From contig OY970268.1 in assembly GCA_963715735.1 (NCBI GenBank), positions 2,513,529-2,577,528 of the forward strand: a DNA stretch of 64,000 bases. Reading direction: 5' to 3'. Positions 3,492 to 37,815 of the stretch are shown piece by piece (the stretch's first letter is position 1; each line of letters starts with the position of its first letter). The notes below the pieces were generated by a model. It had not been told where the DNA came from. It worked only from the letters and a program-made list of their open reading frames with translations, and did not search any database. The position numbers and the translations under genes are program-made. This DNA is from an uncultured Thermoleophilia bacterium. Lineage in GTDB: Bacteria > Actinomycetota > Thermoleophilia > Solirubrobacterales > 70-9.

Positions 3492-3634
3492 CGTCGCCTA
3501 AGACAACGGCCCCGCACCGCAAACTCTTGCGCCGCGACCGCTGCGAGGGGGTTGAAAATCGGTCGCGATCCGAATCGGGCGGATAACTTTTCTCCCCCGC
3601 GCAAAGACCTGGCCGCCTGGTGCGTTGTTTGGCC

Positions 3635-19498: not shown

Positions 19499-19630
19499 CT
19501 GAGAACAAACGCGCGTCGGCGGCGCTCTCTTGTGGACGGGCGACGAGTTGTGCGAGCAAGTTTTCCGCGGCGGCCTCCGTTCTTGAATTGTGGACCGAGT
19601 GAGCAGACCCATGAGAAAAACGGAGCGAGC

Positions 19631-20632: not shown

Positions 20633-22056
20633 CCCCGGCGCGTCGCGACAGGTCGGGCGGCCTGTCAGACCTGACTGCGACCCACCGCCGCACCCTGAGA
20701 AGCCTGGCCGGCGACTGGCCGCACACGACTCGCCTGATGCCGTGGTGCCTCGCCGGCTTCATGGCGATGCTCTTCCTGGTCCCTTTCGACAGCGTCGAGC
20801 TGCCGGTCAGCCTGCCGCTCGAAGCGAAGTTGGACCGTCCCTTCCTGCTTGCGATCGTCGCTCTCTGGGTTCTCTCCGTGGTGATGATGGGGGGCTCGAA
20901 GCGCTTGCAGATGACGGCGATTCACTACGCCTTCTTCGGCTTCGCCCTGATCGCGATCCTCAGCCTGGTCCACAACGCCGAGACGACGGTGCGGCTGGGC
21001 GAGCTCGAACTGGGGGTACGCAAGCTCGCGCTGTTGCTGTCCTACCTGGCCCTGTTCGTCGTCGTCGCCTCCAGCGTGCGCGCCTCCGAGGTGCGGCCGC
21101 TGATGAACCTGATGTGCGGGTTGGCGGTGCTCACCGCGATCGGGGTCATCTGGGAGTACCGGGCGGAATACAACTTCTTCTTCGAAGGCCTCGGCCAGAT
21201 CATCCCGGTCTCGCTGCCGCCCGAACTCCACAGCTCCGACTCGATCGGCCGTCGCTCGGTGATCGGTCCCACGATCCACCCGCTGGCGCCGGCGATGATG
21301 ATGGCCTGCGCGCTTCCCTACGCGCTGATCTCCCTGTACGAAAGCCGCGAGCTGCGGCGCAAGATCATCTGGGGATTGGCGGCGGCGATCATGATCGCCG
21401 CCGCGCTCGCCACCCAGAGGAAAACCAGCATCGTCGCCCCGGTGGCGGCGGTCGCGGTCCTGATGGCCTATCGCCCGCGGATGCTGCGGATGCTGGTGCC
21501 GGGCGTGGTCGCTTTCTTCGTTCTCGTCCACATCGTCACCCCCGGCGCGCTCGGCGGCGTCACCTCGCAGCTGCTGCCCCAGAACTTCTTCGGCTTCGGC
21601 AGCACCGTCGATCGCCAGAGCGACTACGCGGCGATCGAGCCGGACGTGATCAACCAACCGCTCCTGGGTCGCGGCTACGAGACCTACGACCAGAAGAAGT
21701 ACCGGATCCTCGACAACCAGTACCTGACCACGATCATCGGCACCGGCATCGTCGGGGTCCTCGCCTATCTCTCGATCTTCGCCGCGATCTTCCTGCTCGC
21801 CCACCGGGTCGCCCGAAACGGCGGCCCCGATCGCGCCGGACCCGCGATCGCGATCGCCGCGGCGGCGAGCGCGATGGTGATCGGAGGCGCGCTGCTCGAC
21901 CTCCTCGCCCTGCCGCAGCTGCCGTACCTGATCTGCTTCTTCGGGGGCTTCGTCGCGGTGCTCTGGAAGGACGTGCGGCCGGCGGGCTACCCGGCGGTCC
22001 GGCCGGTCGAGCGACCGATCCGCGGCCAGGCGGATCCGCTACCCCTCAACGGCTGA
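20629..22056 (+). CDS. O-antigen ligase/polymerase family membrane protein (Wzy-like)
   Basis: Polytopic membrane protein. It has a periplasmic-loop region and the terminal motif RILDNQYLTTIIGTGIVGVLAYL typical of Wzy_C-family proteins. The GTG start overlaps the upstream stop. Confidence 0.7.
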   Translation: MTPARRDRSGGLSDLTATHRRTLRSLAGDWPHTTRLMPWCLAGFMAMLFLVPFDSVELPVSLPLEAKLDRPFLLAIVALWVLSVVMMGGSKRLQMTAIHYAFFGFALIAILSLVHNAETTVRLGELELGVRKLALLLSYLALFVVVASSVRASEVRPLMNLMCGLAVLTAIGVIWEYRAEYNFFFEGLGQIIPVSLPPELHSSDSIGRRSVIGPTIHPLAPAMMMACALPYALISLYESRELRRKIIWGLAAAIMIAAALATQRKTSIVAPVAAVAVLMAYRPRMLRMLVPGVVAFFVLVHIVTPGALGGVTSQLLPQNFFGFGSTVDRQSDYAAIEPDVINQPLLGRGYETYDQKKYRILDNQYLTTIIGTGIVGVLAYLSIFAAIFLLAHRVARNGGPDRAGPAIAIAAAASAMVIGGALLDLLALPQLPYLICFFGGFVAVLWKDVRPAGYPAVRPVERPIRGQADPLPLNG

Positions 22057-23227: not shown

Positions 23228-24829
23228 TCAGGCGCGGCCGGGCAGGCGCGAGAGGGCCGGGGTGAGGCGATCGTGTGCCTCGCCCGCCAGGCGCCGGGCG
23301 AGGCGTCGGATCTCGCGCCGCGGCGGCGCCACCTGGCTCGGGGACACCGCGTTCGGCGACTCCAGCGCCAGCTCGATCCGCTCCCGTCCGGAGACCGGGA
23401 TCGGCTCTCCGATCCCGACCCGGACGCCCCCCGACAGAACCGATTCGTCCTCGCGGGTGCCCGTCGGCGCGACGACGAGGGTCGAGACGCCGGCCGGGAT
23501 CTCGACCGACAGCCGGCGCGAATGGGGGCGCACCAGCAGCTGCTCGCCGTCCTGGCGAGAGCTGAAGTTGGCGGCCGCGATCTCCCCCATCGATGCCCAG
23601 CGGACCTCGCCCAGGCTCTCGATCTCGGCCGTCCGCTCGGCCAGTAGGTCGAGGCCGTCGCGAAGGTCGTCGTGATGCCCGTAAAGGATCAGCGGCTGGT
23701 CGAGGTAGGCGCGCAGGGCGACCTCGGCGGGTGAGTGGAGCGGCGGCGCGACGGGGTGGCGGAGGAGCACCGGCGGCAGGCCCGGCGCCGAGTCCGCCGG
23801 CCACCAGCCGACCGGCGATCCGGCCGACGGGGGCGAGGCGAGCCAGGACGGGGACGTCTCCGCCCAGGGATAGGGACGAGTCATCGTGATCGCGTCGAAC
23901 CCGGTCCGCACCAGGGCCCGCGCCATCGGCTCCGAGCAGGCCTCGTGCGGCGGCACCATTACCCGTGGCACCGCGACCCCGGTTCGGCGCTCGAAGGCCG
24001 CGATCCGACGCAGCGCCTGCGAGGCGAGCGTCAGCGCCTCCTGCTCGGTGACCTCGCGGCCGAGCTCGCCGCCGAAGTGATCGTTGCCGTGGACGAGCAG
24101 CGACAGCGAGCGGTGCCGCCGCAGCAGCGAGACCGCGCCGGGATGGTTGAGGCGAGCGTCGAGGGGGACCATCGCCAAGGCGAGATGATAGCCGTGGCGG
24201 TCGGCGTGCTGGGCAACCGCCGGCAGCGAGAGATAGCCGTAGGACGGCCAGTGGAGGTTGGGATCGTCGAGCAGGAAGGTGGCCCGCAGCGGTGGCGGTC
24301 GCCAGCCGTTCCGGGCGGTCAAGGACCGCAGCAGCTCGACGAAGGGAAGCAGTGCGAGCGAACGGGTCCCACAGAGGCGACAGCGCAGAGATTCGGCCTC
24401 GTCCAGCTCCGCGGGCGCGAGCGCGGCGACGTCGAGGGATCCGCGGCGCACCCAAAGCGGTCCGCCGCCGAAACCGGCGATCGGCCCCGAGCCCGAGATC
24501 TCGAGCGGCGCCAGGTCGGCGGCGAGGTGGCGGTCCGCCAACCCGCGACCGCGCAGGCGCCGGTCGACCGCCTCGACCGGGGCGATCTCGAAGGGGACGG
24601 CGGCGCCGTCCCCGCCCTCGGGCTTGAGCGCGGCGAGACCGCGGACGCCGGCGCTCGTCGCCTCGCTCGCCTGGGCCGAGCCGCCGAACTCGAGCAGGGC
24701 ATCCAGCGCGGCGAACGCGCCCGCGTCCCTCGCCTCGAAGACGACGTCCGGAAACGCCGCGGAGAGGGCGGCGAAAAGACGCGGGCGCTTGCTCAGCTCG
24801 GCGCCGGGGAAGACGCCCACACGAGGCAT
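23228..24829 (-). CDS. hypothetical protein with a central NodB/CE4-like (polysaccharide deacetylase-like) core
   Basis: FLLDDPN (TFDD-like) and LVHGNDH (H-x-x-x-H-like) motifs, plus PPHE. The flanking N- and C-terminal regions are not recognisable. The CDS call is solid on codon bias and tight spacing to the GT-C gene; the functional call is weak. Confidence 0.5.
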   Translation of the reverse strand: MPRVGVFPGAELSKRPRLFAALSAAFPDVVFEARDAGAFAALDALLEFGGSAQASEATSAGVRGLAALKPEGGDGAAVPFEIAPVEAVDRRLRGRGLADRHLAADLAPLEISGSGPIAGFGGGPLWVRRGSLDVAALAPAELDEAESLRCRLCGTRSLALLPFVELLRSLTARNGWRPPPLRATFLLDDPNLHWPSYGYLSLPAVAQHADRHGYHLALAMVPLDARLNHPGAVSLLRRHRSLSLLVHGNDHFGGELGREVTEQEALTLASQALRRIAAFERRTGVAVPRVMVPPHEACSEPMARALVRTGFDAITMTRPYPWAETSPSWLASPPSAGSPVGWWPADSAPGLPPVLLRHPVAPPLHSPAEVALRAYLDQPLILYGHHDDLRDGLDLLAERTAEIESLGEVRWASMGEIAAANFSSRQDGEQLLVRPHSRRLSVEIPAGVSTLVVAPTGTREDESVLSGGVRVGIGEPIPVSGRERIELALESPNAVSPSQVAPPRREIRRLARRLAGEAHDRLTPALSRLPGRA

Positions 24830-24833: not shown

Positions 24834-26684
24834 TCACCTCAGCGCGTAGACGCGGAAGCCCCGCGAGGGGTTGCCGCCGCCGGGAGCGGCGGCGACGTCG
24901 CCGAAGGTCGCGACCAGGGGCTTGGAGCGCAAGTAGGCGCCGAGGACGCGGTCGTAGCCGACACCGAAGCGACCGGTTTCGAAGGCGGAGGTGTCGCGGG
25001 TGCTGACCAGCGCGTAGGGAACGCGCTCGCGCTCGATCCGGGCGATCGCGGCGCGCTCCTCGGCGGGAGTATCGATCAGACCGGGAAGGAACATGTTCTC
25101 GTAGAGGGCCTGGGGCCGGTCGTTGAGGAAGTACATGCCGGCGTCGGCGGGCATCGCCAGAATCGGTTCGCCGGCCCGGGTGCGTTCACGGATGAAGTCG
25201 ATCGCTTCCTGTTGAGCGGCGGCGCTGCGAGTGTCGCCCACGTAGGACCCGGCCGCGGTGTGGATCGTCGTGCTCTTGTCGGGGTAGAGGGCGACGGCGG
25301 CGTAGAAGGCGATCCCCGCGGCCACCGCGGCCAGCATCGCCATCACGGCCGGCCGGGCGGTCGGCCAACGATCGCCGATCCGCTGGTGCAGGAGGCCCAG
25401 CAGCAGCACCGCCGGAGCCGCGTAGTAAGGCGCGGCGGAGTCCATCGTGAACTGGTCGTAGGCGCGCGAGCAGAGCAGGACGGCGACCGCGGCCAGCGCC
25501 AGGTCGAGCGGCCAGCGGCCGCTCAGCGGGGCATCGGGTTCGCGGCGCCACAGCGCCCGCGCGAGCAGCGCCGCGGCGAGCAGCGAGAGCAACGGCAGCC
25601 AGCTCATCCCGAGCAGCAGCTGCTTGCCCTCTTCCTGCACGGCGGCCTCGGCGCCGGCGAAAACGCCGCTCGCCTTCCAGGCGGCGAGCAGAAGCAGGGA
25701 TCCGAGGCAGGCGGCGGCCAGCGGCCAGAGCGCCTTGACCCGTCCCAGACCACGCGCCGCCTGGACCCTGACCGCGGTCGCGGTCAGGCCCGCCAGCAGG
25801 CCGAGGTAGATCGCCCCGCGGGCCAGGGAGGAGGCGACGCTGGCGGCGTCGAAGGGCGTCCACTCGCGGTAGGCGTTGAAGCCGGCGGCGCGGAGGAAGT
25901 CGATCGGCCAGAGGTTCTGCCAGAAGAGGCGGTCGAAGCCGACCGAGGCGGCGAGCGTTCCGAGCACGGCGATCGGGATCGCCAGCGCCGGCGCCGCGAT
26001 CCAGGCGAGCGCGCGCAGCGCCGCGCGCAGATTCTCTTCGCGCCAGATGCCGACGGCCCAGGCGATCCCGGCGAGCCCCGCGGCGGCGGCGAACTCGACC
26101 CGGGTCAGCGCGGTCAGCCCGATCGCCGTGCCGGCGAGCAGGAAGTGTCCGCGGGCGAGCGCCAGCAGAGTCAGGATCAACAGCAGCAGGCCGAAGGTGG
26201 CGGAGTTGGTATGGGGCAGGACGAAGTTGAACTGGGTGCCGGAGAACCCGATCGCGATCAGCACCGCGGTCGAGAGCGCCGCCGCCAGCGGCCGCAACAG
26301 CTGGCGGGCAAGGGCGAAAAAGGAGCCGGCGATCGCCACGGTCAGCGTCAGCCCGAGCGCGTAGGCGGTTGCGAGGCTGGTCCCGAACAGCTTGAAGGCG
26401 CCGGTCAGCGTGTAGACGCCGAGCGGCCCGTAGAAGTAGCGGACTTCCTCGTAGGGGAGGTGGCCGTGCACGGCCTGGGCGGCGGTGGTCAGCTCGGCGC
26501 CGGCGTCGATCTCCGGCGTCCCCCACTTTCGCCAGCTGATCGCCGCGAGCACGACGATGAACAGGCCGAGGCCGGCCAGGGCGATGCCGTCGGCCGAGCG
26601 CGCCAGGGCCAGCAGCCGCGCCGGGAGGGCGCGGCGGCCAGCGCCGCGCAGGGGTTCGGAGACGATCGCGTCGTTCGCACTCAC
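24834..26684 (-). CDS. GT-C fold glycosyltransferase (ArnT/PMT, GT39-like) with a C-terminal extracytoplasmic domain
   Basis: About 12-13 TM segments. The first loop is WRKWGTPEIDAGAELTTAAQAVHGHLPYEEVRYFYGPLGVY. The soluble C-terminal part is about 150 aa. GTG start at 26684. Confidence 0.7.
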   Translation of the reverse strand: MSANDAIVSEPLRGAGRRALPARLLALARSADGIALAGLGLFIVVLAAISWRKWGTPEIDAGAELTTAAQAVHGHLPYEEVRYFYGPLGVYTLTGAFKLFGTSLATAYALGLTLTVAIAGSFFALARQLLRPLAAALSTAVLIAIGFSGTQFNFVLPHTNSATFGLLLLILTLLALARGHFLLAGTAIGLTALTRVEFAAAAGLAGIAWAVGIWREENLRAALRALAWIAAPALAIPIAVLGTLAASVGFDRLFWQNLWPIDFLRAAGFNAYREWTPFDAASVASSLARGAIYLGLLAGLTATAVRVQAARGLGRVKALWPLAAACLGSLLLLAAWKASGVFAGAEAAVQEEGKQLLLGMSWLPLLSLLAAALLARALWRREPDAPLSGRWPLDLALAAVAVLLCSRAYDQFTMDSAAPYYAAPAVLLLGLLHQRIGDRWPTARPAVMAMLAAVAAGIAFYAAVALYPDKSTTIHTAAGSYVGDTRSAAAQQEAIDFIRERTRAGEPILAMPADAGMYFLNDRPQALYENMFLPGLIDTPAEERAAIARIERERVPYALVSTRDTSAFETGRFGVGYDRVLGAYLRSKPLVATFGDVAAAPGGGNPSRGFRVYALR

Positions 26685-26732: not shown

Positions 26733-29700
26733 TTACGGTTTGCCGGCGTCGTAGTGCGCCAGCACCGTCGCCGCGGAAAGCGCCGAGGTGTAGAGCGCGG
26801 GCTCGTCGACCGTGCCCTGCAGGTAGCGCTGGGCGAGGCTGGTCGAGGAGATCGGGCGGCCGATCCGCAGGTCCCGACTGCCGGACCAGGTCGGGCCATT
26901 GTTGAAGTTCGCGTTGGCGCGTTCGACGCCGTCGACGTAGATGCGCACGCGGCTGCCGTCGTAGGTGCCGACCAGGTGGTGGGTCGTGTTGGGCGGGACC
27001 GTGGTCGCGCTGGTCGCCTGCCCGCGGGTGACGATCCCGATGATGTTTTCTCTGGCGGCGACGAAGATCGGTCGGTTGCTGGAGTCGATGACCAGCGAGA
27101 AGCCGTTGTCGAAGTCGGTGCTCGAGTCGCTGACGACGAAGTGGTAGCCGCCCGAACTTTTGGCCGCGCTGGTCCGGACCCAGGCCTCGACCGAGAAGGT
27201 CGACGGGGTGCCGAACGGAGTCGGCGACAGGTCGACGTACTGGCTGGTGCCGTTGAGGGAGCGCGCGAAGCTGTTCGTCTCACCGCCGATCAGCGGCGCG
27301 ACCGAAGCCGGGGCGCTGACGTAGGTGCCGTTGTTGTTGGCGCCGTTGGCGTCGGCGGCGGTCGTGCCCGAGGTCTCGTCGAGGCGCCAGAGGTCGCTGA
27401 TCCCGGTGGTCCCGAGGACCGCCGCGCGATAGGCGCTGTTGACGGTCAGCGAGCGGGTCGTCGTCGCGGTCGCGCCTTTGTTGTCGGTGACCCGCAGGCC
27501 GAGGGTCAGGGTCGCCGTGGCGGTGAAGGCTTTGGTCGTCGTGGCCGTCGTCCCGGTGCTCGTCTCGAAGCTGCCGTTGCCGTCGAGGTCCCACTCGTAT
27601 TTCGTGATCGTGCCGTCGGGGTCGGTGGAGGCGGAGCCGTTGAGGGTGACGGTCTGACGGGTGTTGGCCGGACTCGGGCTGACGGTGAAGGACGGGACGG
27701 GCAGGCGGTTGTTGATGGTGACCGTGCGACTGGTGGTCGCCGTCTGGCCATCGTCGTCGGTGACCCGCAGTTTCACTTCGACGGCGCCCGCGGCGGCGTA
27801 GGAGCGGCTGGTCGTGGCCGTCGTCCCGGTGCTCGTCTCGAAGCTGCCGTTGCCGTCGAGGTCCCACTCGTATTTCGTGATCGTGCCGTCGGGGTCGGTG
27901 GAGGCGGAGCCGTTGAAATTGACGGTCGCGCCGGTGTCGGCCGGGTTCGGAGTCGTGGTGAAGGAGGCGCTCGGGGGCAGCAACGTGACGGTGACGGTTC
28001 GCGCCGACACCGTGGTCGCGCCTTTGTCGTCGGTGACCCGCAGTTTCACTTCGACGTTGCCCGCCGCGGTGTAGGAGCGGCTGGTGGTCGGGGTAGTCCC
28101 CGTGTTCGTCTCATACGTGCCGTTGCCGTCGAGATCCCACTCGTATTTCGTGATCGTGCCGTCGGGGTCGGTGGAGGCGGAGCCGTTGAAGGTGACCGTC
28201 TGCCCTTTGTTGACCGCGCTCGGGGTGGCGGTGAAGGAGGAAACCGGGGCGCGGTTGGTAACCGTGATCGTGCGCAGGGTCGTCGATTTGTTGCCGCTCG
28301 AGTCGGTGACGCGCAGGCGCACGTCGTAGCTGCCGGCCGTCGTGAAGCTCCGGCTCGCGACCGGTTCGGCGCCGGTTTCGGTCTCGAAGCTGCCGTTGCC
28401 ATCGAGGTCCCATTCGTATTTCGTGATCGTGCCGTCGGCGTCGGTGGAGGCGGAGCCGTCGAAGTTGACCGGTTCGCCGGTCTGCGCCGGGCTCGGCGTC
28501 GGGGTGAAGGAAGCGACCGGAGGCTCGCCGCCGCCGACCGTGCCGAAGTAATGGTCTTCGATCGTCGCCGCCGGCAGCGCCCGGTTGTAGAGGGCCACCT
28601 CGTCGAGGTCGCCGGCACCGAACAGGGCGCTCGCCGCGCGCGACATGAAGTACAGGGTCGAGTTGGCGAAGTTCCCCGCGCCGGTGCCGCTGCGCGTCTT
28701 CACGTAAGGGACGGCCTGCCCGTCGACGTAGGGGGTGATCTGGTTCGCCGCGTCCGCACTGGTGTCGAAAACCAGCGCGTAGTGGTGCCAGGCGGCCGCG
28801 CTCGGCCGGTCGAAATAGGCGGTGTTGCGGCTTTCGCCGCTGCCGATCCCGACGCCGAATTTGCCGCCTTCCTCAGGGGCGTTCGGGTCGACCAGGAAGC
28901 CGCCTGGGTTCGAGTTGAAGTTCGGGGTGAACTCGAAGGCGAGGTCGTCGTCGTCGGCGAAGGCGTCCCACTTCATCCAGAACTCGAGCGTCAGCTTGTT
29001 CGTCGCCGAGAGGTTCAGCACCGCCTGCGCCGCGCTGTTGGTCCCGTCGAAGCTGACCGCGGTGTCGGAGCCTCCGGGCAGGGCGCTGGCGACCCCGAAT
29101 TCCGGCGTGCCAGCGACCGCGGCGTGGGCGCCGCCTTTGCCGTCGGTCAGGGCCGTGCCGGCGGCGTCGTTCATCCGCCAGTAGTCGATCAACCCGGCGG
29201 TCGCCTGGACGCGGCTCGAGTAGGCGCCGGAGCCCGACGCTTCGACCGTGACCGTGCGGGTCGTCTGGCCGCTGTTGCCGGCGTTGTCGGTGGCCCGCAG
29301 CTTGACGTCGTAGGAACCGGCCGAGGCGAAGCTGGTGCTGACGGTCGCCGTCGTCCCGGTGTTCGTCTCATACGTGCCGTTGCCGTCGAGGTCCCACTCG
29401 TATTTCGTGATCGTGCCGTCGGCGTCGCTGGAGGCGGAGCCGTCGAGGTTGACCTGCTGGCCGGCCTGGGCCGGGTTCGGCGATGCGGTGAAGGATGCGA
29501 GCGGCGCCTGGCTGTTGCCGCCGAAGTGCTGGGCGATCGTCGCCGCCGGCAGCGCCCGGTTGTAGATCGCGACCTCGTCGAGATCGCCGGCGGCGTAGAG
29601 GGCGCTGGCGGCGCGCGACATGAAGAAGAGCGTCGAGTTGGCGAAGTTGCCGGCGCCGGTCCCGGTCCGGGTCTTCACGTACGGAACGGGTTGGCCGTCG

Positions 29701-32700
29701 ACGTAGGGAATGACCTGTTCGGCGGCCGCCGCGGTGGTGTCGAAGACCAGCGCGTAGTGGTGCCACTGGCCGACGCTGGGCCGCGTGAAGTAGGCGGTGT
29801 TGCGGCTTTCGCCGCTGCCGATCCCGACGCCGAATTTGCCGCCTTCCTCAGGGGCGTTCGGGTCGACCAGGAAGCCGCCCGCGTTGGAGTTGAAGTTCGG
29901 GGTGAACTCGAAGGCGAGGTCGTCGTCGTTGGCGAAGGCGTCCCACTTCATCCAGAACTCGAGCGTCAGCTTGCTGGTGCCCGAGAGGTTGAGCGCCGCC
30001 TGGGCGGCGCTGTTCGCGCCGTTGAAGCTGACCGCGGTGTCGGCGTCGCCGGCAACCGCGCCCTCGGCTCCGAGGCTGGGCGAGCCGGTCAGCGTGGCCG
30101 GCGCCGTGCCTTTGCTGTCGGCCAGCGAGGTCCCGGAGGTCTCGCCCATTCGCCAGTAGTCGACCAGCCCCGCCGTGGAGAGCACGCGGGTCGAGTAGGT
30201 GCCGGTGCCGGCACCGTCGATGCTGACGGTCTCCGTGCTCGTCGCGGTTTTGCCGGCGGCGTCGGTGACCCGCAGGCCGACCGTGGCCGGGCCCGGGGCC
30301 GAGTAGCTGTTGCTCGCGGTCGCGGTCGCCCCGGTGTTGGTCTCATACGTACCGTTGCCGTCGAGGTCCCACTCGTATTTCGTGATCGCCCCGTTCGGCG
30401 AGCTCGAGGAAGAGGCGTCGAAGCTGACCGTCTGGCCGACGTCGGCCGGGTTCGGCGAGCTGGTGAACGAGGCGGTCGGCGGCTGCGGGTTCCCGGCGTA
30501 GTGGGCGGCGATCGTCGCGCCGTCGAGAGCACGGTTGTAGACCGCCAGCTCGTCGAGCGAGCCGGCGCCGTAGAGGGCGCTGGCGGCGCGCGACATGAAG
30601 TGCAGCGAGGAGTTGGCGAAGTTGCCGGCCCCGGTGCCGGAGGCGGTCTTGGTGAACGTCACCGCTTTGCCGTCGACGTAGGGCTTGATCTGGTCGGCGG
30701 CCGCGGCGGAGCTGTCCATCACGAAGGCGTAGTGGTGCCACTGGCCGGCGCTCGGACGGGCGAAGAAGACGTTGTTGCGGCTGGAGCCGTTGCCGATCGC
30801 CACCCCGAACTTGCCGCCCTCCTGGGGCGCGTTGGGGTCGACCAGGAAGCCGCCGGCCGTCGAGTTGAAGTTCGGCGTGTACTCGAGCGCCAGGTCGTCG
30901 TCGTTGGCGAAGCCGTTCCACCTCATCCAGAACTCGACCGTGACTTTGCTCGTACCGGAGAGCGAGAGGTTCGCGCTCGCTGCGTCGTCGAGACCGTCGA
31001 AGCTAGCCGCGGTGTCGGCGTCGCCGACCAGGGCGCCGGCAACGCCCAGCGTCGGCGCGCCGCTCGTCGTCGCGTTGCTGGTCCCGAAGGAGTCGATCAG
31101 CGTGCCCGAGCCGCCGGCGTCGCCGAAACGCCAGTAGCTGAGCAGGCCGGTCGTCCCGAGGACGCGGGAGGGGTAGCTGCCGCTGCCGCTGTTGTCGATC
31201 GAGAGGGCGCGGTTGGTGGTGCTGCGGACGCCCTGTTCGTCGGTCACTCGCAGGCGCACCGTGTAGACGCCGGTGGTCGCGTAGGTGGTGGTGGCGATCG
31301 GGTTGGAGCCGCGGTCGGTCTCGTAGCTGCCGTTGCCGTCGAGGTCCCATTCGTAGCGGGCGATGCCGCCGTCGAGATCGGTCGAGGAGCTGGCGTCGAA
31401 GGTGACGGTCTGGTTGGTCTGCGCCGGGTTTGGCGAGATCGTGAACGAGGCGGTCGGCGGCTGCGGGCCCGAGGGCGGGTCAAGGGTCACGTCGACCGGG
31501 GTCTGCGGCTGCACACCCATGTCGGAGAAGATGTTGTAGGTCGCCTGGATGATGCGACTGTCGGGATTCGGCGCCAGCGCGTTCGCCCAGTCGTTGGTCC
31601 CGGCCGCGAAGACGAGCGCGCCGCTGGGAGCCGTGTACTTGACCGCCTGGCCGCAGGCGCACTGGCCGGGCGGCGCGGTTTTCGCGTAGATCCGTCCCTC
31701 GTCCTGGATCCAGTCGACGTTCTGCCCGAGCGGGATCGGCGAGCTGGTCAGCGGTTTGACCCCGGCCGGCTGTTTGCTCAGGTACTGGGCCTGGGTCGGG
31801 ATCGCGTCCCACTCCCAGCCGACCAGGTTGGAGCCGATCGTCGTCGCCGAGCCGGTCGGGATGCCGGTGTTGCGCCAGATCCGGTCGCCGGCGTAGGCAC
31901 CGCCGGAGGAGGCGGGAATCTGCAGCGGGAAGGCGCCGGCCTGCAGCTCGGCCCCGTAGTACATGTTCCCGAGCAGCTGGTTCTCGGGCATGTTGGGACC
32001 GACCCGACCCCCCTCGGGGGCGTTCGGGTCGCCGTTGGGCGCGCCGTTGTCGCGGAAGGTGGTGGTCGAGTTCTCGGGGTGATCGTCGGCGGTGCCGGCG
32101 ATCTGATCGACGCCGAGCGCGTCGTCGGCGGTGCCGAGTTTGCCGTCGGGACCCCAGTCGTTGGCACCGTCCTCGCCGCTGCCGTTGGAGCCCGACCCCT
32201 CGACGGTCTTGTAACAGACGAGGGTGCGGCCGCCGTCCTCGTAGCGGACCTTCCAGTAGGCGGTGTTGCCACTGAAGGAGGCGACGTCGACGCCGGCGTC
32301 GCGGGCGGCGAGGAACCCTTTCATCTGCTCCAGGGACCAGTACTCGCTGTGGCCGGAGATCACGTCGACGCCGTGTCCGAGCAGCTGCGCGGGCGTCTGG
32401 TGCACCGCCACGTCCTCCGAATAGGAGACGTCGTAGCCCTGCTTCTCCAGCCACTGGACCAGGTAGAAGTCGGGCCCGATGAAGCGGTTGCCCTGACGCG
32501 GGTCGTTGAGCGGCCGGTCGAAGGAGACCTTGACCGCCCGCGGGGTGCCGGCGATCGTGTTTTCACCGCCACCGCCACCGGTGTCGAAGTAGAGGGACTT
32601 GCCGCCCCAATCGTTGTAGGCCTCATACGTCGCGGTGGGGACGACGAAGAGCATTTCGGCTTTGGGGACTCGCGAGTCGTCGCGGACGACGAAGGTGATC

Positions 32701-33215
32701 GTGTTTTCGAGCCCGCCGGGGGTCGTCAGCTTGACCGTGTAGACGCCGGAGGCGGGGATCGCGGAGCCGGGGATCGTGTAGCTGTTGGCCCAGCTGGTGC
32801 AGCTCTTGAGGCCGGTCGTGGCATTGGTCGCGGAGCAACTGGCGAAGAGGTTGTTGACGGCGACGCTGGCGCTCGAGGCGGGGGTGATCAGGCGGCCACC
32901 GCTATTCCCGTAGTAGCCCATGCGGTAGACGTCGACGCGGACGCTGGCGGCGGCGCCGGTGCTCGCCCGGCCCAGTTTCAACGTCACGCTTTCGCCGAGG
33001 TTGACGCTGCTCTTGGTCGCGAAGCCGGCGACGTTGGGGTCGTACTCGATCAGGCGCCAGCCGTCGGAGCCCGGGCCGGAGCAGTTGTTCTCCTGGACGA
33101 CCGGGTTGTCGCTCGGGCAGCTGACTTCGGCACTGGCCTGACCGCAGATGAGCAGCAGCGCGCTGCTCGCGAAGAGCGCCAGGATCGTCAGGGATTTAGT
33201 GCGGGGGATGGTCAT
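26733..33215 (-). CDS. giant secreted multidomain protein (2160 aa): signal peptide, about 555-aa N-terminal domain, (PKD-LamG)x3, PKDx4, LamG
   Basis: Signal peptide MTIPRTKSLTILALFASSALLLICGQASA. The N-terminal domain (VDVYRMGYYGNSGGRL, VVPTATYEAYNDWGG, HSEYWS) resembles the family I recall being annotated as N,N-dimethylformamidase beta-subunit-like. There are seven PKD units (ASFT..P.P......V.F.GS.S.D.DG.I..YEWDLDGNG.(Y/F)ET) and four LamG/concanavalin-like units (YWR......G....D, FW(M/V), W(H)HY). Confidence 0.9.
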   Translation of the reverse strand: MTIPRTKSLTILALFASSALLLICGQASAEVSCPSDNPVVQENNCSGPGSDGWRLIEYDPNVAGFATKSSVNLGESVTLKLGRASTGAAASVRVDVYRMGYYGNSGGRLITPASSASVAVNNLFASCSATNATTGLKSCTSWANSYTIPGSAIPASGVYTVKLTTPGGLENTITFVVRDDSRVPKAEMLFVVPTATYEAYNDWGGKSLYFDTGGGGGENTIAGTPRAVKVSFDRPLNDPRQGNRFIGPDFYLVQWLEKQGYDVSYSEDVAVHQTPAQLLGHGVDVISGHSEYWSLEQMKGFLAARDAGVDVASFSGNTAYWKVRYEDGGRTLVCYKTVEGSGSNGSGEDGANDWGPDGKLGTADDALGVDQIAGTADDHPENSTTTFRDNGAPNGDPNAPEGGRVGPNMPENQLLGNMYYGAELQAGAFPLQIPASSGGAYAGDRIWRNTGIPTGSATTIGSNLVGWEWDAIPTQAQYLSKQPAGVKPLTSSPIPLGQNVDWIQDEGRIYAKTAPPGQCACGQAVKYTAPSGALVFAAGTNDWANALAPNPDSRIIQATYNIFSDMGVQPQTPVDVTLDPPSGPQPPTASFTISPNPAQTNQTVTFDASSSTDLDGGIARYEWDLDGNGSYETDRGSNPIATTTYATTGVYTVRLRVTDEQGVRSTTNRALSIDNSGSGSYPSRVLGTTGLLSYWRFGDAGGSGTLIDSFGTSNATTSGAPTLGVAGALVGDADTAASFDGLDDAASANLSLSGTSKVTVEFWMRWNGFANDDDLALEYTPNFNSTAGGFLVDPNAPQEGGKFGVAIGNGSSRNNVFFARPSAGQWHHYAFVMDSSAAAADQIKPYVDGKAVTFTKTASGTGAGNFANSSLHFMSRAASALYGAGSLDELAVYNRALDGATIAAHYAGNPQPPTASFTSSPNPADVGQTVSFDASSSSSPNGAITKYEWDLDGNGTYETNTGATATASNSYSAPGPATVGLRVTDAAGKTATSTETVSIDGAGTGTYSTRVLSTAGLVDYWRMGETSGTSLADSKGTAPATLTGSPSLGAEGAVAGDADTAVSFNGANSAAQAALNLSGTSKLTLEFWMKWDAFANDDDLAFEFTPNFNSNAGGFLVDPNAPEEGGKFGVGIGSGESRNTAYFTRPSVGQWHHYALVFDTTAAAAEQVIPYVDGQPVPYVKTRTGTGAGNFANSTLFFMSRAASALYAAGDLDEVAIYNRALPAATIAQHFGGNSQAPLASFTASPNPAQAGQQVNLDGSASSDADGTITKYEWDLDGNGTYETNTGTTATVSTSFASAGSYDVKLRATDNAGNSGQTTRTVTVEASGSGAYSSRVQATAGLIDYWRMNDAAGTALTDGKGGAHAAVAGTPEFGVASALPGGSDTAVSFDGTNSAAQAVLNLSATNKLTLEFWMKWDAFADDDDLAFEFTPNFNSNPGGFLVDPNAPEEGGKFGVGIGSGESRNTAYFDRPSAAAWHHYALVFDTSADAANQITPYVDGQAVPYVKTRSGTGAGNFANSTLYFMSRAASALFGAGDLDEVALYNRALPAATIEDHYFGTVGGGEPPVASFTPTPSPAQTGEPVNFDGSASTDADGTITKYEWDLDGNGSFETETGAEPVASRSFTTAGSYDVRLRVTDSSGNKSTTLRTITVTNRAPVSSFTATPSAVNKGQTVTFNGSASTDPDGTITKYEWDLDGNGTYETNTGTTPTTSRSYTAAGNVEVKLRVTDDKGATTVSARTVTVTLLPPSASFTTTPNPADTGATVNFNGSASTDPDGTITKYEWDLDGNGSFETSTGTTATTSRSYAAAGAVEVKLRVTDDDGQTATTSRTVTINNRLPVPSFTVSPSPANTRQTVTLNGSASTDPDGTITKYEWDLDGNGSFETSTGTTATTTKAFTATATLTLGLRVTDNKGATATTTRSLTVNSAYRAAVLGTTGISDLWRLDETSGTTAADANGANNNGTYVSAPASVAPLIGGETNSFARSLNGTSQYVDLSPTPFGTPSTFSVEAWVRTSAAKSSGGYHFVVSDSSTDFDNGFSLVIDSSNRPIFVAARENIIGIVTRGQATSATTVPPNTTHHLVGTYDGSRVRIYVDGVERANANFNNGPTWSGSRDLRIGRPISSTSLAQRYLQGTVDEPALYTSALSAATVLAHYDAGKP
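27440..28530 (-). repeat. four tandem PKD-module coding repeats of about 268-278 bp
   Basis: The WDLDGNG codons recur near 28413, 28145, 27867 and 27597, with highly similar GSASTDPDGTITKYEWDLDGNG stretches. Confidence 0.9.
28530..31460 (-). repeat. three tandem coding repeats of about 975-987 bp, each one PKD plus one LamG module
   Basis: The WDLDGNG codons recur near 31350, 30375 and 29400. Units 2 and 3 are near-identical over long stretches; the antisense ORFs at 28822 and 29797 translate almost identically. Confidence 0.9.
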
Positions 33216-33280: not shown

Positions 33281-34170
33281 TCAGTCCGAGCCGATGGGAT
33301 GAAAAAGGGACGAGCCGCCCCTGACCCTGGCCCGGAGCTCCCCTCGGACGAAGCGCTTGAACCGCGCATCCTCAACCTTAGGTTGAGAGTGAGTCAAGGC
33401 GCTGAGGTAGCCGTAGAGGAAGGCGATTCCGGAGAGCCCGCGCGGCTTCTGCAGCGCCACCTTGAAGGACCTCGCGACCACCCAGGGCAGGCCGTAGCGG
33501 AGGATGTAGGCGCAGCGGCCGTGCCGGGCACGGCCCCGCAGCGCTCCCCCCGGGTCGCCACCGGACGATGGTGCTTGGCGCTCAGCTCCGGCAGCGAACG
33601 GGTCGCGAAGCCTTCCATCCGCGCGTAGGTCTCGTCGATCGTGTCCCAACCGAGTCTCTCCTCGATCCCGCCGATCGCCTCGAAGCACTCGCGGCTGTAG
33701 AGCTTCAGAGCGCCGCGGACATGGTGCTCGGGGACCTTCGTCGGGCGCCATCCTCGCCGGCCGTGCTCGAGCAGTGAGCCGCCGGCAATTCCCAGCTGCG
33801 GCTCCTCCTCGAAGCGCTCGATCAGGCACTCGAAGTAGTCGGGCGGCAGCTCGACGTCGGCGTCGAGCTTGCCGACGTGGGTGAACTGCGTGAGGTCAAC
33901 CGTAGCCAGGGCAGCGTTGAAGGCGCGCGCCTCGGCCGCGAGGGTGAGCCCGTCCTCCTCGGTGCGATCCTGGGGGGGCATCGGCATCGTCTCCAGGAAC
34001 GGCACCCGCGCCGCCATGCTCCTGAGAATCGACGGGGTGTCGTCGCTGGAGCCGTCGTCGACGACGAGCCAGAGATCGGGCGGGCGGCTCTGCTCAGTGA
34101 CCGCGCGGATCGTCGTCGCCAGGTAGGCGGCCTCGTCGCGGGCGGGAGTGATCAGCAGCACGCGAGACAT
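33281..34170 (-). pseudogene. GT2 glycosyltransferase interrupted by a 1-nt frameshift in a homopolymer
   Basis: The N-terminal part (MSRVLLITPARDE..VVDDGSSDDT..GKLDADV..HHRPVATRG) runs in one frame. The conserved continuation (GALRGRARHGRCAYILRYGLPWVVARSFKVALQKPRGLSGIAFLYGYL..ED.RFKRFVR) runs in another. The switch lies at the C6 run (G6 on the coding strand) at 33546-33551. One extra G would restore a single frame of about 296 aa. Confidence 0.7.
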
Positions 34171-34171: not shown

Positions 34172-35404
34172 TCAGCTCCGCCTCGAGCGCTCGACCAGGT
34201 CGTCGACCAACTCCAGGTAGCCCTGCCGCTGGCGTCGCCACTCGATCGCGGCGAGCTTTTCCGCCGCGCGCTCGGCCCGTTCCTGAGCCAGACGGGGCTC
34301 GCTCCGAACACCTTCGATCGCGGCGGCGATCGAGCTCGGGTCGCCGGGCTCGGCCAGCAGCACGTCGTCGCCAAAGTAGCTCTCGATCACCGGCAGGCGG
34401 GAGGCGACAACCGGCAGCCCCATGTGCACGTACTCGAGCAACTTGACCGGCAGCAGCAGCTCGGTGAAGTCATCGCGCAGGGTCGGTACGACGCCGAGAT
34501 GAGCTTCCCGAAGGCGATCGGGGATCTGCTCGACCGGCGTCGGACGGGGTGCGATCCGCACTCCCTCGGGGACGAGCGCCGCCGCCGTCGCCGCCAGCTC
34601 CCGCGCCGCCTCGGCATCGGCGCCGAAGACGTCGAGCACGACCGGGGTGGCGCGCTCCCGCAGCAAAGCCACGGCTCGGACCAGGTTCTCGACCCCGAAG
34701 CGGTCGGCGAGACCACCGTGGTAGACGACCCGCAGCTCCCCGTCGGCGGGCGGCAGCTGGGGCGGGCGGCGCTCGCCGAAGACCCGCTCGTCGGGCGTGT
34801 TCATCACGACCTGGGTTCGGGCGGCGCCCACCCCCCGGGCGGCGAGCAGGTCCCGGGCCTCAGCGGTGACGAAGATGTGGCCGTCGGCCATTGCCGCGCT
34901 GACCCGCTCCTCCGCCCGGATCAGGCGCACGAGCGGGTGACCCGGCGAGCGGCCGAACAGGGTGGCGAACAGCTCGGGAAAGGTGTCGTGGAAGTTGAGG
35001 ACGAGCGGAGTCCCCCGCAGCTTCGGCGCCAACGCCGCGAAGACGAGCGCGTCGGGCATGTTGTGGACCTCGACCAGGTCGAAGCGCAGTTGGCGATCCA
35101 GGGCGGTGACCTTGCGCGCGGCGCCGGCGAGGAAGCGGGCGTTGCCGTCGAGGTAGTTGCGGGTTCCCCCGCGCGGCTTTGCCGCCGCGGCGCGGTGGAG
35201 GACGATCTTGCCGCTGCCGACCGCGATCTCCCGATCGTCGTTGAGGCAGACGCAGTCGACTCGGTCCCCGCGTTCGGCCAAGGCCCTCGCCTGGCGCTGG
35301 ATCCGCGAATCGACCTCGAAGTCGGAGTAGTGGATCATGCAGACCCGAAGGCCACCCGCGACCGGGGTGCGGGCGACGCTCTCAGCCGTCTGCTGGGAGC
35401 TCAA
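34172..35404 (-). CDS. GT-B glycosyltransferase (GT4-like)
   Basis: RVCMIHYSDFEVDSRIQRQARALAERGD (WbuB/GT4-like N-terminus) and a C-terminal LLPVKLLEYVHMGLPVVAS motif. ATG 35338 is an alternative start that would remove the 23-nt overlap with the aminotransferase gene. Confidence 0.8.
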   Translation of the reverse strand: MSSQQTAESVARTPVAGGLRVCMIHYSDFEVDSRIQRQARALAERGDRVDCVCLNDDREIAVGSGKIVLHRAAAAKPRGGTRNYLDGNARFLAGAARKVTALDRQLRFDLVEVHNMPDALVFAALAPKLRGTPLVLNFHDTFPELFATLFGRSPGHPLVRLIRAEERVSAAMADGHIFVTAEARDLLAARGVGAARTQVVMNTPDERVFGERRPPQLPPADGELRVVYHGGLADRFGVENLVRAVALLRERATPVVLDVFGADAEAARELAATAAALVPEGVRIAPRPTPVEQIPDRLREAHLGVVPTLRDDFTELLLPVKLLEYVHMGLPVVASRLPVIESYFGDDVLLAEPGDPSSIAAAIEGVRSEPRLAQERAERAAEKLAAIEWRRQRQGYLELVDDLVERSRRS

Positions 35405-36551
35405 AGCTCTTCACCGCCGCGACGATCTCGCTGATCTGCCAGTCCTCGATCGCCGGGAAGATCGGCAGCGAGCAGTTTTCGTCGGCCAGCCGCTCGGCGA
35501 CCGGCAGGGCGCCGGGGCCGAGGCCGAGGTGGGCGTAGGCGGGCTGGAGATGGATCGGCGTCGGGTAATGGATCGCGCTGGCGATGCCGCTGCCGTCGAG
35601 GTGGTCGCGGAGCGCGTCGCGGCGATCGCTGCGAATGACGAAGAGGTGGTAGACGTGGTCGGAGTCCGCTGCCGGCAGGGCCGGGGGAATCACGGCGCGG
35701 CCGGCGAGTCCGGCGCGCAGGGCGTCGGCGGCCTCGCGGCGGCGCTGGTTCCAGTCGGGAAGATGACGCAGCTTGACCGCGAGGATCGCCGCCTGCAGGG
35801 TGTCGAGCCGGTGGGTGCCGGTGGCAAGGCGGTGATTGTGACGGGGGGACTCGCCGTGGGAGCGCAGCAGGCGCACGCGCTCGTCGAGCGCGGCGTCGCT
35901 GGTTACGAGAGCGCCACCGTCGCCCCAGCCGCCGAGGTTCTTGGTCGGGTAGAAGCTGAAGCAGCCGGCATCGCCGAGCGAGCCGACCGGACGGCCGCGG
36001 TAGATCGCGCCATGCGCCTGGCAGGCGTCCTCGACGACGTAGATGTCGCGCTCGCGGCAGAGCCTCAGCAGCGGGTCCATGTCGACCGGGCGCCCGAAGA
36101 GGTGGACCGGGATCACGCAGCGGGTTCTCTCGGTCAAGGCCGCTTCGACGATCTCAGCCGTGATCAGCGCCGTCTCCGGGTCGACGTCGACGATCACCGG
36201 CGTGGCGCCGACGGTGCTGACCGCCTCGGCGGTGGCGATAAAGCTGTAGGTCGGGACGATGACCTCGTCCCCGGGCCCGATGCCGAGTGCGTGCAGGGCG
36301 ATCTCCAGGGCCGCGGTGCCCGAGGAGACCCCGGCCGCGTGTTCGGTCCCGCAGAACTCGGCGAAAGCGTCCTCGAAGCGCTCCAGTTCGGGGCCGAGGG
36401 TGAAGGCGGAGTCGCGGCCGATCCGCTCGATCGTCTCCATCAGCTCCGCGAAGAGATCGGGAAAGGCGCTGTCGAGGCGAATGAAGGGGACCTTCGTGCC
36501 CTCGGTGGCTGCCAGCGGCAGCGGACTGCCCGTCGCGGTCGGTGCGTTCAC
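35382..36551 (-). CDS. DegT/DnrJ/EryC1/StrS-family PLP-dependent sugar aminotransferase (WbpE/WlbC/ArnB-like)
   Basis: VSSGTAALEIAL, PTYSFIATAEAV, VEDACQAHGA, FSFYPTKNLGGWGDGGA (PLP Lys) and HYP.P.H. GTG start at 36551 preceded by GGAGGAGG. GTGA overlap with the regulator gene. Confidence 0.9.
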   Translation of the reverse strand: MNAPTATGSPLPLAATEGTKVPFIRLDSAFPDLFAELMETIERIGRDSAFTLGPELERFEDAFAEFCGTEHAAGVSSGTAALEIALHALGIGPGDEVIVPTYSFIATAEAVSTVGATPVIVDVDPETALITAEIVEAALTERTRCVIPVHLFGRPVDMDPLLRLCRERDIYVVEDACQAHGAIYRGRPVGSLGDAGCFSFYPTKNLGGWGDGGALVTSDAALDERVRLLRSHGESPRHNHRLATGTHRLDTLQAAILAVKLRHLPDWNQRRREAADALRAGLAGRAVIPPALPAADSDHVYHLFVIRSDRRDALRDHLDGSGIASAIHYPTPIHLQPAYAHLGLGPGALPVAERLADENCSLPIFPAIEDWQISEIVAAVKSFELPADG

Positions 36552-37207
36552 GATGCCTCCTCCTGGCGCGGTTGCTCCAGCTCGTTGAACAGGGCGGCGG
36601 CCTCGCGGCGCGAGCGCACGCCGAACTTTCCGAACACCGAGGCGAGGTGGCTCTTGATCGTGCTCTCGGAGAGAAAGAGCGCCTCGGCGATCTGGGCGTT
36701 CGTCATCCCCTGCGACACGTATTCCATGACCTGGCGCTCGCGATGGGAGAAGGTCGGCCGCTCGACGCTCGCGCGGAGCTTGCGGGGGACGACGGACTGT
36801 CCGGAGCCGACCGCCCTCACCGTTACCGCCAGGGTCGACTCGAGATCGGTCTCGAAGACGATCGCGTCCGCCCCCGCGTCGAGCGCGCGGCGAACACCGG
36901 TCCCGGTGGCGGTCGGCGAGACGACGACTATCGCCGGTCCCCGAAGCTCGCGCCGGAGGCGCCGCAGCGCCGCCATCTCGCTCGGCAGATCGAGATCGCA
37001 GACGAAGACCACGATCGCGCTCGCCGCAAGTCCCACTCCGGCCAGCTCGCTCGGACCCTCGAACACGACCAGCTCGAGGTCTAGATCCTGCTCGCTCAGC
37101 GTCGCCTCGATCCGACGGCGCGCGTCGGAGGAAGCAGGGCAAACGATCGCGCAAACCTGCCCGGATCTGGACAAGATGCCTTCGATCGGATCGCTGAGGA
37201 CCGCCAT
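36548..37207 (-). CDS. LuxR/NarL-family regulator with an atypical receiver-like N-terminal domain
   Basis: C-terminal HTH: FSHRERQVMEYVSQGMTNAQIAEALFLSESTIKSHLASVFGKFGV. In the N-terminal receiver-like fold the acidic pair is CP (AIVCPASS) and the conserved Lys position reads E (GADAIVFET). An Asp is retained in VFVCDLDLP. Confidence 0.85.
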   Translation of the reverse strand: MAVLSDPIEGILSRSGQVCAIVCPASSDARRRIEATLSEQDLDLELVVFEGPSELAGVGLAASAIVVFVCDLDLPSEMAALRRLRRELRGPAIVVVSPTATGTGVRRALDAGADAIVFETDLESTLAVTVRAVGSGQSVVPRKLRASVERPTFSHRERQVMEYVSQGMTNAQIAEALFLSESTIKSHLASVFGKFGVRSRREAAALFNELEQPRQEEAS

Positions 37208-37287: not shown

Positions 37288-37815
37288 ATGACCCCCAGCG
37301 CGCAGAGGCTCCCGGCGAACGAGGCGCCGCATCGACTACTCGACGACGTCGAGCTCGGCGAGGGGGTGGTGATCCAGGCGTTCACCAACCTCTACGGCTG
37401 CCAAATCGGCTCCCGCAGTCGGATCGGGACCTTCGTGGAGATCCAGCGCGGCGCCATCGTCGGCTCCGCTTGCAAGATCCAGAGCCACACCTTCATCTGC
37501 GACGGGGTGAGGATCGAGGACGGGGTGTTCGTCGGTCACGGCGTGATGTTCATCAACGACAAGCGACCGCGGGCGCTCACCCCCGAGGGTGAGCTTCAGG
37601 ACGAGTCTGACTGGGAGCTGATGAGGTCCGTGGTCGAGGCGGGGGCCTCGATCGGATCCGGGGCGACGATTCTCGGCGGCTTGCGGATCGGTGCCGGCGC
37701 GACCGTCGGCGCCGGCGCCGTGGTCACGCGCGACGTGGCGCCGGGGTCGACCGTCGTCGGCAATCCCGCGCGGCCGCTCAGTCCCTCGCCCCGGTCAGCG
37801 CCAGCGCTCCAGTAA
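37288..37815 (+). CDS. LbH sugar N-acetyltransferase (FdtC/QdtC/WbpD-like)
   Basis: GCQIGSRSRIGTFVEIQRGAIVGSACKIQSHTFICDGVRIEDGVFVGHGVMFINDKRPRA plus C-terminal repeats. Confidence 0.85.
   Translation: MTPSAQRLPANEAPHRLLDDVELGEGVVIQAFTNLYGCQIGSRSRIGTFVEIQRGAIVGSACKIQSHTFICDGVRIEDGVFVGHGVMFINDKRPRALTPEGELQDESDWELMRSVVEAGASIGSGATILGGLRIGAGATVGAGAVVTRDVAPGSTVVGNPARPLSPSPRSAPALQ

Follow-up and report, generated by a model that had tools for sequence, protein, structure and literature searches.

The 64,000-nucleotide stretch analysed here, called the window below, belongs to an uncultured Thermoleophilia bacterium (contig OY970268.1) and carries, at 26733-33215 on the minus strand, a gene which starts with ATG and codes for a product of 2160 amino acids (aa). 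The gene and its product, both referred to as the target, are found in a glycan-assembly locus, and the protein combines a signal peptide, an N-terminal domain related to the large (beta) subunit of dimethylformamidase (DMFase) and a long array of PKD and LamG modules. The GC fractions at codon positions 1, 2 and 3 of the target are 0.58, 0.56 and 0.93, as expected for a gene since the GC content of the window is 70%. A 2185-aa open reading frame (ORF) on the plus strand over the same DNA was rejected as a shadow ORF in view of its Arg/Gly/Ala-rich translation and its wrong codon-position GC. The target is divided as follows.

33129..33215, minus strand: signal peptide, aa 1-29, predicted cleavage between ASA and EV (read from the translation)
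31461..33128, minus strand: immunoglobulin (Ig)-like domain and DMFase-type alpha/beta/alpha catalytic domain, aa 30-585 (Pfam, AlphaFold2 model, Foldseek, residue mapping)
28551..31460, minus strand: three PKD-LamG (Laminin_G_3) modules, aa 586-1555 (Pfam and motif positions)
27441..28550, minus strand: four tandem PKD domains, aa 1556-1925 (Pfam and motif positions)
26733..27440, minus strand: terminal divergent LamG, aa 1926-2160, and stop codon (Pfam and motif positions)

The ORF and its signal peptide had been reported in an earlier note made from the sequence alone, and both were confirmed on the minus strand: the N-terminus, MTIPRTKSLTILALFASSALLLICGQASA followed by EV, displays the n, h and c regions and the ASA cleavage motif of a Sec-type signal peptide. 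The N-terminal domain of about 555 aa described in the same note was recovered with its three motifs, YRMGYYG (aa 97-103), ATYEAYNDWGG (aa 195-205) and HSEYWS (aa 289-294), and all 8 Cys residues of the protein are located within aa 1-521. Pfam analysis and motif positions also bore out the modular architecture claimed for the remainder. PKD domains (PF18911/PF00801) were detected by PKD_4 in seven stretches (E 3.5e-97) with YEWDLDGNG cores at aa 621, 947, 1272, 1600, 1691, 1782 and 1873, and Laminin_G_3 (PF13385) in four stretches (E 6.4e-66) with LamG ends at aa 887, 1212, 1537 and 2136; from these motif positions the order signal peptide, catalytic region, (PKD-LamG)x3, PKDx4, LamG was deduced. 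Among orthologues, identity reaches 58-93% in the three PKD-LamG modules and 58-89% in the terminal LamG, and conservation is at about the same level in the LamG modules and in the catalytic domain. The C-terminal 1570 aa contain 13% Thr and 10% Ser. Neither an LPXTG motif nor a C-terminal transmembrane anchor was seen in the translation.

Family, fold and conserved residues of the N-terminal domain

The Pfam family DMFA2_C (PF20254) matches aa 93-550 of the target with an E value of 8.8e-78 (262.7 bits for a cutoff of 27) and over profile positions 1-371 of 374; the same family is found in the large subunit of the Paracoccus sp. DMF DMFase (6LVB/6LVC/6LVD/6LVE; PMC7686228). When the N-terminal domain was searched as a single sequence in the PDB, only N-acetyl-(R)-beta-phenylalanine acylase was matched, and a profile of 23 sequences retrieved this acylase (E 1e-18) together with the DMFase large subunit (E 3e-9). 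An AlphaFold2 (AF2) model of aa 29-590, computed from 70 homologues, reached a predicted local distance difference test score (pLDDT) of 93.9 and a predicted template modelling score (pTM) of 0.94. In a Foldseek comparison of this model with the PDB, the best match was again the acylase (8I5A/8HUY/8I59; E 6e-20), followed by the DMFase large subunit (6LVB/D/E; E 5e-17 to 5e-19), and the remaining matches, mostly isolated Ig domains, began at E 6e-5. No glycoside hydrolase or lyase family was matched by the target in Pfam, NCBIfam or the PDB. By profile and by fold, the N-terminal domain is a member of the DMFase-beta superfamily, as the earlier note had proposed.

DMFase and the target share an N-terminal Ig-like domain and a ThuA-like alpha/beta/alpha catalytic domain (Foldseek E 5e-17, template modelling (TM) score of 0.56 on the query and of 0.42 on the DMFase chain), with an identity of only about 15%. 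DMFase is a cytoplasmic alpha2beta2 enzyme which possesses a 15-kDa small subunit, hydrolyses dimethylformamide (DMF) and is encoded in a solvent-catabolism locus, whereas the target has a Sec signal, is fused to seven PKD and four LamG domains and is encoded in a glycan locus. The acylase, the closest relative both in sequence and in fold, shares the TYxAY, HxEY, GNxxYW and GxExD motifs with the target and, by its name, removes an N-acetyl group, which is the type of reaction proposed below for the target. It differs by an identity of 16-18%, a length of 772 aa, an extra middle domain, a small-molecule substrate and the lack of a PKD/LamG array. The names of the two relatives with solved structures indicate that each takes a formyl or an acetyl group off an amide nitrogen. 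No paper on the acylase was found in the literature searched; its structures (8HUY, 8I59, 8I5A) make outdated the statement of the earlier note that the family had no established function outside true dimethylformamidases.

In DMFase, Fe(III) is bound by Y399, Y440 and E521, and H519, N547 and E657 are also essential (PMC7686228). The numbering of the DMFase chain is that of the paper, as verified through the Y440A mutant entry 6LVD. These residues were transferred to the target and their conservation was followed in 243 relatives, which include 123 representatives of 50%-identity clusters and extend down to about 36% identity.

DMFase Y399: target Y200, motif ATYEAYN, kept in 218 of 225 relatives
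DMFase H519: target H289, motif HSEYWS, kept in 226 of 234 relatives
DMFase E521: target E291, motif HSEYWS, kept in 227 of 234 relatives
DMFase N547: target N317, motif SGNTAYW, kept in 222 of 234 relatives
DMFase E657: target E468 (probable equivalent), motif GWEWD, through the GfElD block of the acylase, kept in 191 of 199 relatives
DMFase Y440: no aligned target residue (profile alignment)

Five of the six essential residues of DMFase can thus be mapped on the target, and each of them is kept in 95-97% of the relatives. Since the catalytic residues of DMFase are conserved across the family, the N-terminal domain should be an enzyme rather than a scaffold. Y209 of the target is near-invariant (216 of 226 relatives) and, from the alignment, is a candidate substitute for the Y440 ligand. 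Other invariant residues (R98, Y102, R226, R234, E257, R324, R388, D389, E411 and D470) have no mapped counterpart in DMFase.

The clade is large, with 6771 cluster representatives at E <= 1e-3 and 1477 at E <= 1e-30. Among 99 relatives with complete N-termini, a Sec-like hydrophobic region precedes the domain in 72; of the 27 others, 12 were listed and 10 of these display a twin-arginine (Tat) SRRRF/L motif. Nearly all relatives with complete N-termini therefore appear, from their sequences, to carry Sec-like or Tat-type export signals. A Tat signal (SRRRFLQ) takes the place of the Sec signal in many relatives of 36-46% identity (P0045, P0048, P0059, P0067, P0075, P0079 and others), and Tat export fits a protein which folds, and maybe loads a metal, before secretion. 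A length of more than 1500 aa is reached by 27 of the 243 sampled relatives. In several metagenome contigs the coding region of the homologue breaks up, inside the PKD/LamG repeats, into ORFs which overlap or are fragmentary (L001, 12079-12109; L002, 12816-12850; L004, 10001-17885), probably by assembly frameshifts in repetitive, high-GC DNA. For many members of the family, the 600-950 aa recorded in databases are therefore an underestimate of the real length.

Gene neighbourhood in the window and in related loci

In the window, the target belongs to a run of minus-strand genes in the order LuxR, DegT, GT4, GT2, target, GT-C-like and CE4-fold gene (GT, glycosyltransferase; CE4, carbohydrate esterase family 4). 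Gaps of 65, 48 and 4 nucleotides separate, respectively, the GT2 gene from the target, the target from the GT-C-like gene and the latter from the CE4-fold gene. On the plus strand, upstream of the run, are encoded a NeuD-type N-acetyltransferase, a second GT2 and an Rv2525c-like protein; on the downstream side are found Wzy_C, a GT4-like gene, Wzx and a MurJ-like flippase. A second module of the same system lies about 20 kb away, at 3587..7983 on the plus strand.

36548..37207, minus strand: LuxR/GerE-type regulator, head of the run (syntenic in 44 loci)
35382..36536, minus strand: DegT/ArnB-type sugar aminotransferase
34172..35404, minus strand: GT4 glycosyltransferase
33281..34170, minus strand: GT2 glycosyltransferase, immediately upstream of the target (frameshifted in the window)
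24834..26684, minus strand: putative ArnT/PMT_2-like GT-C glycosyltransferase, 616-aa polytopic membrane protein (homologue names)
23228..24829, minus strand: 533-aa protein with a predicted CE4/NodB-fold (ArnD-like) central domain (AF2 model and Foldseek)
37288..37815, plus strand: NeuD/PglB/VioB-type sugar N-acetyltransferase, divergent
20629..22056, plus strand: Wzy_C polymerase/ligase
17969..20578, minus strand: Wzx/MOP flippase
16419..17972, minus strand: MurJ-like flippase
3587-4699, plus strand: WecB-type 2-epimerase
4656-5750, plus strand: UDP-GlcNAc 3-dehydrogenase-like GFO/IDH
about 5762-6598, plus strand: small DPM1/ArnC/GtrB-like GT2 (between the GFO/IDH and flavoprotein genes)
6598-7983, plus strand: amine-oxidase-like flavoprotein (FAD) (NCBIfam PRK07233 'hypothetical protein', E 4.5e-107, above cutoff)

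The spacing and the order of the same-strand neighbours are those given in the earlier note, but the GT2 gene which it placed upstream of the target is frameshifted in the window. The frameshift occurs at a G-run (33546-33551, minus strand) which counts 6 G, whereas the intact locus of an 86% orthologue (L001) reads VATRGGALRGRARHG at this place and 7 G are needed. This can be either a homopolymer assembly error, a real pseudogene or a phase-variable site; split genes also occur in contigs of related metagenome-assembled genomes (MAGs). An ArnC-type label for this GT2 is unsupported, its NCBIfam matches being weak and generic. The 616-aa protein encoded downstream of the target shows many hydrophobic segments and no match in Pfam (E <= 10) or NCBIfam (E <= 1). 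Its GT-C label, also proposed in the earlier note, finds support in close homologues of 62-85% identity which are named ArnT-like glycosyltransferases, four of them with PF13231 (PMT_2), and the gene is present in 37 of the 90 related loci described below.

The CE4-like label given to the next gene is supported only at the level of the fold and finds no profile match, the 533-aa protein being likewise without hits in Pfam (E <= 10) and NCBIfam (E <= 1). Its AF2 model (pLDDT 85) resembles 3RXZ, a mycobacterial putative polysaccharide deacetylase (Foldseek E 7e-6), ArnD (8T0J; E 2e-4) and other CE4 enzymes (E 1e-3 to 1e-2), with a TM score of about 0.5 on the target chain of the search. D188-D189, H247 and H251 (Asp-Asp and His-x3-His) are invariant in 42 homologues, and no signal peptide was seen in the protein. 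Promoter and terminator scans of 22500-38000 gave the shuffle background, with 0 promoters and 6 terminator-like sites for 5.6 expected, one terminator-like hairpin being within the coding end of the GT2 gene; they neither support nor oppose co-transcription.

A scan of one genome per species yielded 493 relatives, and the best 79 loci were retrieved; these are all from Thermoleophilia/Solirubrobacterales MAGs, the closest being 94% identical, and the window is accordingly assigned to that group. No record with exactly the target sequence was present in the assembly collection. The neighbour proteins of the window were compared by tblastn with 90 related loci, and in 80 of them at least two homologues of the window glycan genes were detected within 8-10 kb of the target homologue. 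The recurring set consists of an acetamido-sugar pathway, a small GT2, a flippase and an ArnT/PMT-like GT-C enzyme, and loci with glycan genes display at least four different gene orders. Orthologues of 72-94% identity mostly keep the gene order of the window and, where the frame is intact and does not run into a contig end, code for 2090-2707 aa with 3-4 LamG ends. In a group of 54-61% identity the order is LuxR-DegT-GT4-GT2…Wzy-GT4-Wzx-homologue…beta-helix proteins, and in another group it is GT2-Wzx-GT4-GT-C(reverse)-homologue. In L028, L032 and L056, the epimerase, GFO, small GT2 and flavoprotein genes are on one side of the homologue and MurJ-like and GT-C genes on the other; among the loci, the closest genus with a name is Baekduia (L056). 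The module formed by these four genes directly flanks the DMFA2_C homologue in these three loci and in L005, L007 and L089.

The association extends to distant relatives. Four contexts were examined at 36-39% identity, and L007 and L089 among them hold the glycan set in the largely co-directional order AcT-DegT-GFO-smallGT2-EamA-epimerase-flavoprotein-PMT_2-DMFA2_C, where EamA is a small membrane protein of the EamA type. Their sugar-pathway genes are just 30-51% identical to those of the window, and L007 is an Anaerolineae genome, i.e. from a different phylum. In relatives of 37-38% identity, the DMFA2_C gene adjoins the GT-C gene: in L007 and L089 it follows directly in the same orientation, and in L005 the two genes are on opposite strands. 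L005 and L090 are also glycan loci, with neighbouring genes up to 78% identical to those of the window, and their copies are probably paralogues in related organisms. The homologues are mostly found in glycan loci and are not scattered, a distribution which would have spoken against the interpretation of the earlier note, as judged from the 80 of 90 loci and from the distant L005, L007, L089 and L090. The two other contexts of 36-39% identity, L087 and L088, contain no glycan genes. The short paralogue of L087 (8001-10247) adjoins Nramp and an Fe-dependent repressor and that of L088 (8001-10142) a ZnuA/ABC-3 transporter, metal-homeostasis neighbours which are curious for a putative metalloenzyme. 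In the literature searched (DUF6605, dimethylformamidase with polysaccharide, DMFase homologues), no link between this family and glycan loci was found.

Several other features of the region were recorded. The small GT2 (…VIPAYNEAENI…VDDGSTDGT…) is masked in ORF lists by longer overlapping frames; its identity, 77-81% in other Solirubrobacterales loci and 78% in L005, is far above that of its neighbours. The flavoprotein accompanies the small GT2, the GT-C gene and DMFA2_C in distant lineages (L005, L007, L089 and L090). The Wzx/MOP flippase ORF counts 869 aa with the flippase domain starting at about aa 377, and the long region before it may reflect a start called too far upstream or an additional domain. 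Right-handed beta-helix proteins are encoded at 12708-13898 and 14073-16403 on the plus strand, the second one also having a Big_13 domain. Among 86 related loci, 27 contain homologues of these proteins, as a rule 8-10 kb away on the downstream side of the DMFA2_C gene, and in L002 the neighbours matching them hit a Pel9A-like beta-helix; the two proteins may be glycan-cleaving enzymes of the same system. The 626-aa protein with an Rv2525c-like glycoside-hydrolase-like domain (E 4e-52; 39347-41227, plus strand) is syntenic only in the two closest orthologue loci, L061 and L015. Further envelope genes, found downstream at 43691-50727, code for a YkuD L,D-transpeptidase, an Rce1-like CAAX protease, a class A penicillin-binding protein (transglycosylase and transpeptidase), a GT87 glycosyltransferase and an LPG-synthase-TM protein.

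Proposed role of the target and its alternatives

The polymer-coupled role suggested in the earlier note, which left the choice between anchor, lectin, scaffold and processing enzyme, is best accounted for by a processing enzyme in view of the conserved DMFase catalytic residues. It seems to us highly probable that the target works as an enzyme outside the cytoplasm and that its function is linked to the glycan pathway. A more precise proposal, to which we give a probability of roughly 0.45, is that the target would act outside the cytoplasm as a metallo-amidohydrolase which its LamG and PKD modules attach to the polymer and which de-N-acylates the sugar or the polymer of the GT-C system.

The analyses above establish how the domain folds, that its catalytic residues are kept, that export signals are present and that the gene neighbourhood is conserved; the substrate, the metal, the binding by LamG and PKD modules and every chemical step of the following scheme are inferred. 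In the cytoplasm, the WecB-type epimerase, the UDP-GlcNAc 3-dehydrogenase-like enzyme, DegT and the NeuD-type N-acetyltransferase would produce an acetamido, probably di-acetamido, sugar nucleotide. The small GT2 would put the sugar on polyprenyl phosphate and a MurJ/MOP-type flippase would carry it across the membrane, where the ArnT/PMT_2-like GT-C enzyme would move it to an extracytoplasmic acceptor, most likely the polymer made by Wzx/Wzy. The target, secreted by Sec, would be kept on the polymer or on the cell surface or wall by its four LamG and seven PKD modules, and its DMFase-type domain would hydrolyse an amide on the transferred sugar or on the polymer. The candidate site is composed of Y200 and E291 as putative metal ligands, with H289, N317, E468 and possibly Y209. 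The most likely reaction would be the removal of an N-acetyl (N-acyl) group, leaving a free, charged amine.

A similar logic is known from the Arn pathway (ArnB/C/D/E-F/T) and from the extracytoplasmic CE4 deacetylases PgaB, IcaB and PgdA: an N-acylated amino sugar is carried by polyprenyl phosphate, a GT-C enzyme transfers it outside, and deacylation gives a free amine. The locus resembles these systems by its ArnB-type DegT, its small GT2, its flippase, its ArnT-like GT-C enzyme and its CE4-fold protein, for which ArnD is the second-best structural match. No Arn equivalence of the locus genes was obtained at the NCBIfam cutoff, and the resemblance is one of pathway logic, by analogy, not of membership. 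Moreover, the DMFase-type domain of the target has a fold unrelated to CE4, with a putative Tyr/Glu metal site instead of Asp-His-His.

Several observations weigh against the de-N-acylase proposal. The case for an amidohydrolase draws wholly on the fold, on the conservation of residues and on the association of genes. The target has no equivalent of the pentraxin-like domain II found in DMFase (residues 74-337, about 260 aa) and passes straight from the Ig-like to the catalytic domain, DMFase residues from about 35 to 340 corresponding to just about 45 profile positions; without this domain, and being exported, the target is not a true DMFase. The iron ligand Y440 sits in a DMFase-specific insertion without an aligned partner in the target. 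The locus already offers a candidate deacylase in the CE4-fold, ArnD-like protein, so that a second one is not strictly needed; the CE4-fold gene is confined to the closest orthologue group (13 loci). Ten of the 90 loci show no glycan context, namely four short contigs and L003, L034, L071, L083, L087 and L088. Finally, the best 79 loci all come from one order, Solirubrobacterales, and the 80 of 90 are not independent events; the weight of the association lies in the variety of gene orders and in the two distant lineages L007 and L089.

The C-terminal 1570 aa, rich in Ser and Thr and made of PKD and LamG modules, could point to a protein which is mainly an acceptor or a scaffold: a large S-layer-like protein or adhesin glycosylated by the locus by means of the GT-C or Wzy_C-type enzyme, or a device for display or anchoring of the polymer, the N-terminal domain being a binding module. 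S-layer glycoprotein genes often neighbour their glycosylation clusters, genes close to the target code for a PMT_2/ArnT-like GT-C enzyme and a Wzy_C family protein, and conservation is as high in the LamG domains as in the catalytic one. We nevertheless regard such a role as rather unlikely to be the main one. A mere binding module would not need the residues equivalent to those of the DMFase active site, which are retained throughout the sampled relatives, and short relatives (663-763 aa), for which no PKD or LamG is reported, hold the same place beside GT-C genes. The Tat signals of several relatives suggest the export of a folded, cofactor-loaded enzyme, and no cell-wall anchor motif was seen in the target. 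The acceptor or scaffold role and the enzyme role can coexist.

If the target is an enzyme, its reaction and its substrate could still differ from those proposed. Synteny indicates a coupling to the glycan, not a type of reaction, and the ThuA/GATase1-like core of DMFase is used for several chemistries (PMC7686228). One of the three iron ligands is unmapped, and many Arg, Tyr, Asp and Glu residues are invariant in the clade without a mapped DMFase counterpart, which would suit a hydrolase, lyase or transferase that cuts, releases or transfers the polymer. The sole structural relatives are, however, two amidases, the target retains five of the six residues on which amide hydrolysis by DMFase depends, and no glycoside hydrolase or lyase family was matched in the databases searched, which makes another chemistry on this scaffold improbable. 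It is equally hard to favour a secreted amidase whose substrate is not the product of the locus, such as environmental N-acyl nutrients, peptidoglycan or the wall of another microbe, and which would owe its place among envelope genes only to common ancestry or regulation. Both relatives that have been characterised use small-molecule substrates, the family has many and diverse members, as its 6771 representatives indicate, and the six paralogues named above are outside glycan loci. Yet these six, on long contigs, are short (681-843 aa) whereas most copies in glycan loci carry PKD/LamG arrays, and the association persists through repeated rearrangement of the gene order and is also found in L007 and L089, i.e. 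in two of the four contexts at 36-39% identity.

The de-N-acylase proposal can be extended to the whole family, at a strength which we consider doubtful. The ancestral natural job of the DMFase fold may have been the extracytoplasmic de-N-acylation of envelope glycans, the solvent-degrading DMFase and the beta-phenylalanine acylase being cytoplasmic offshoots. The clade, with its thousands of exported proteins and their frequent fusion to PKD/LamG arrays, would then form a new family of Tyr/Glu-metal carbohydrate deacylases, unrelated to CE4, and a fourth component of the surface-glycosylation systems composed of small GT2, flippase and GT-C enzyme.

The paper that described the structure of DMFase and the corresponding preprint state that DMF does not occur naturally and that no evolutionary context was evident for the fold (PMC7686228). 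A large exported clade with the same catalytic residues, encoded in glycan-assembly loci, provides a testable natural role for this fold. Membership of the superfamily is in itself of a known kind; what is new here is a DMFase-type enzyme in a new cellular place and context. If the target is indeed a glycan de-N-acylase, it would represent a new enzyme family with an unusual metal chemistry, among the few enzymes that set the charge of bacterial surface polymers, and a recurrent partner of GT-C glycosyltransferases would be defined. It would also offer a first functional handle on the envelope of the Solirubrobacterales, abundant and mostly uncultured soil actinobacteria.

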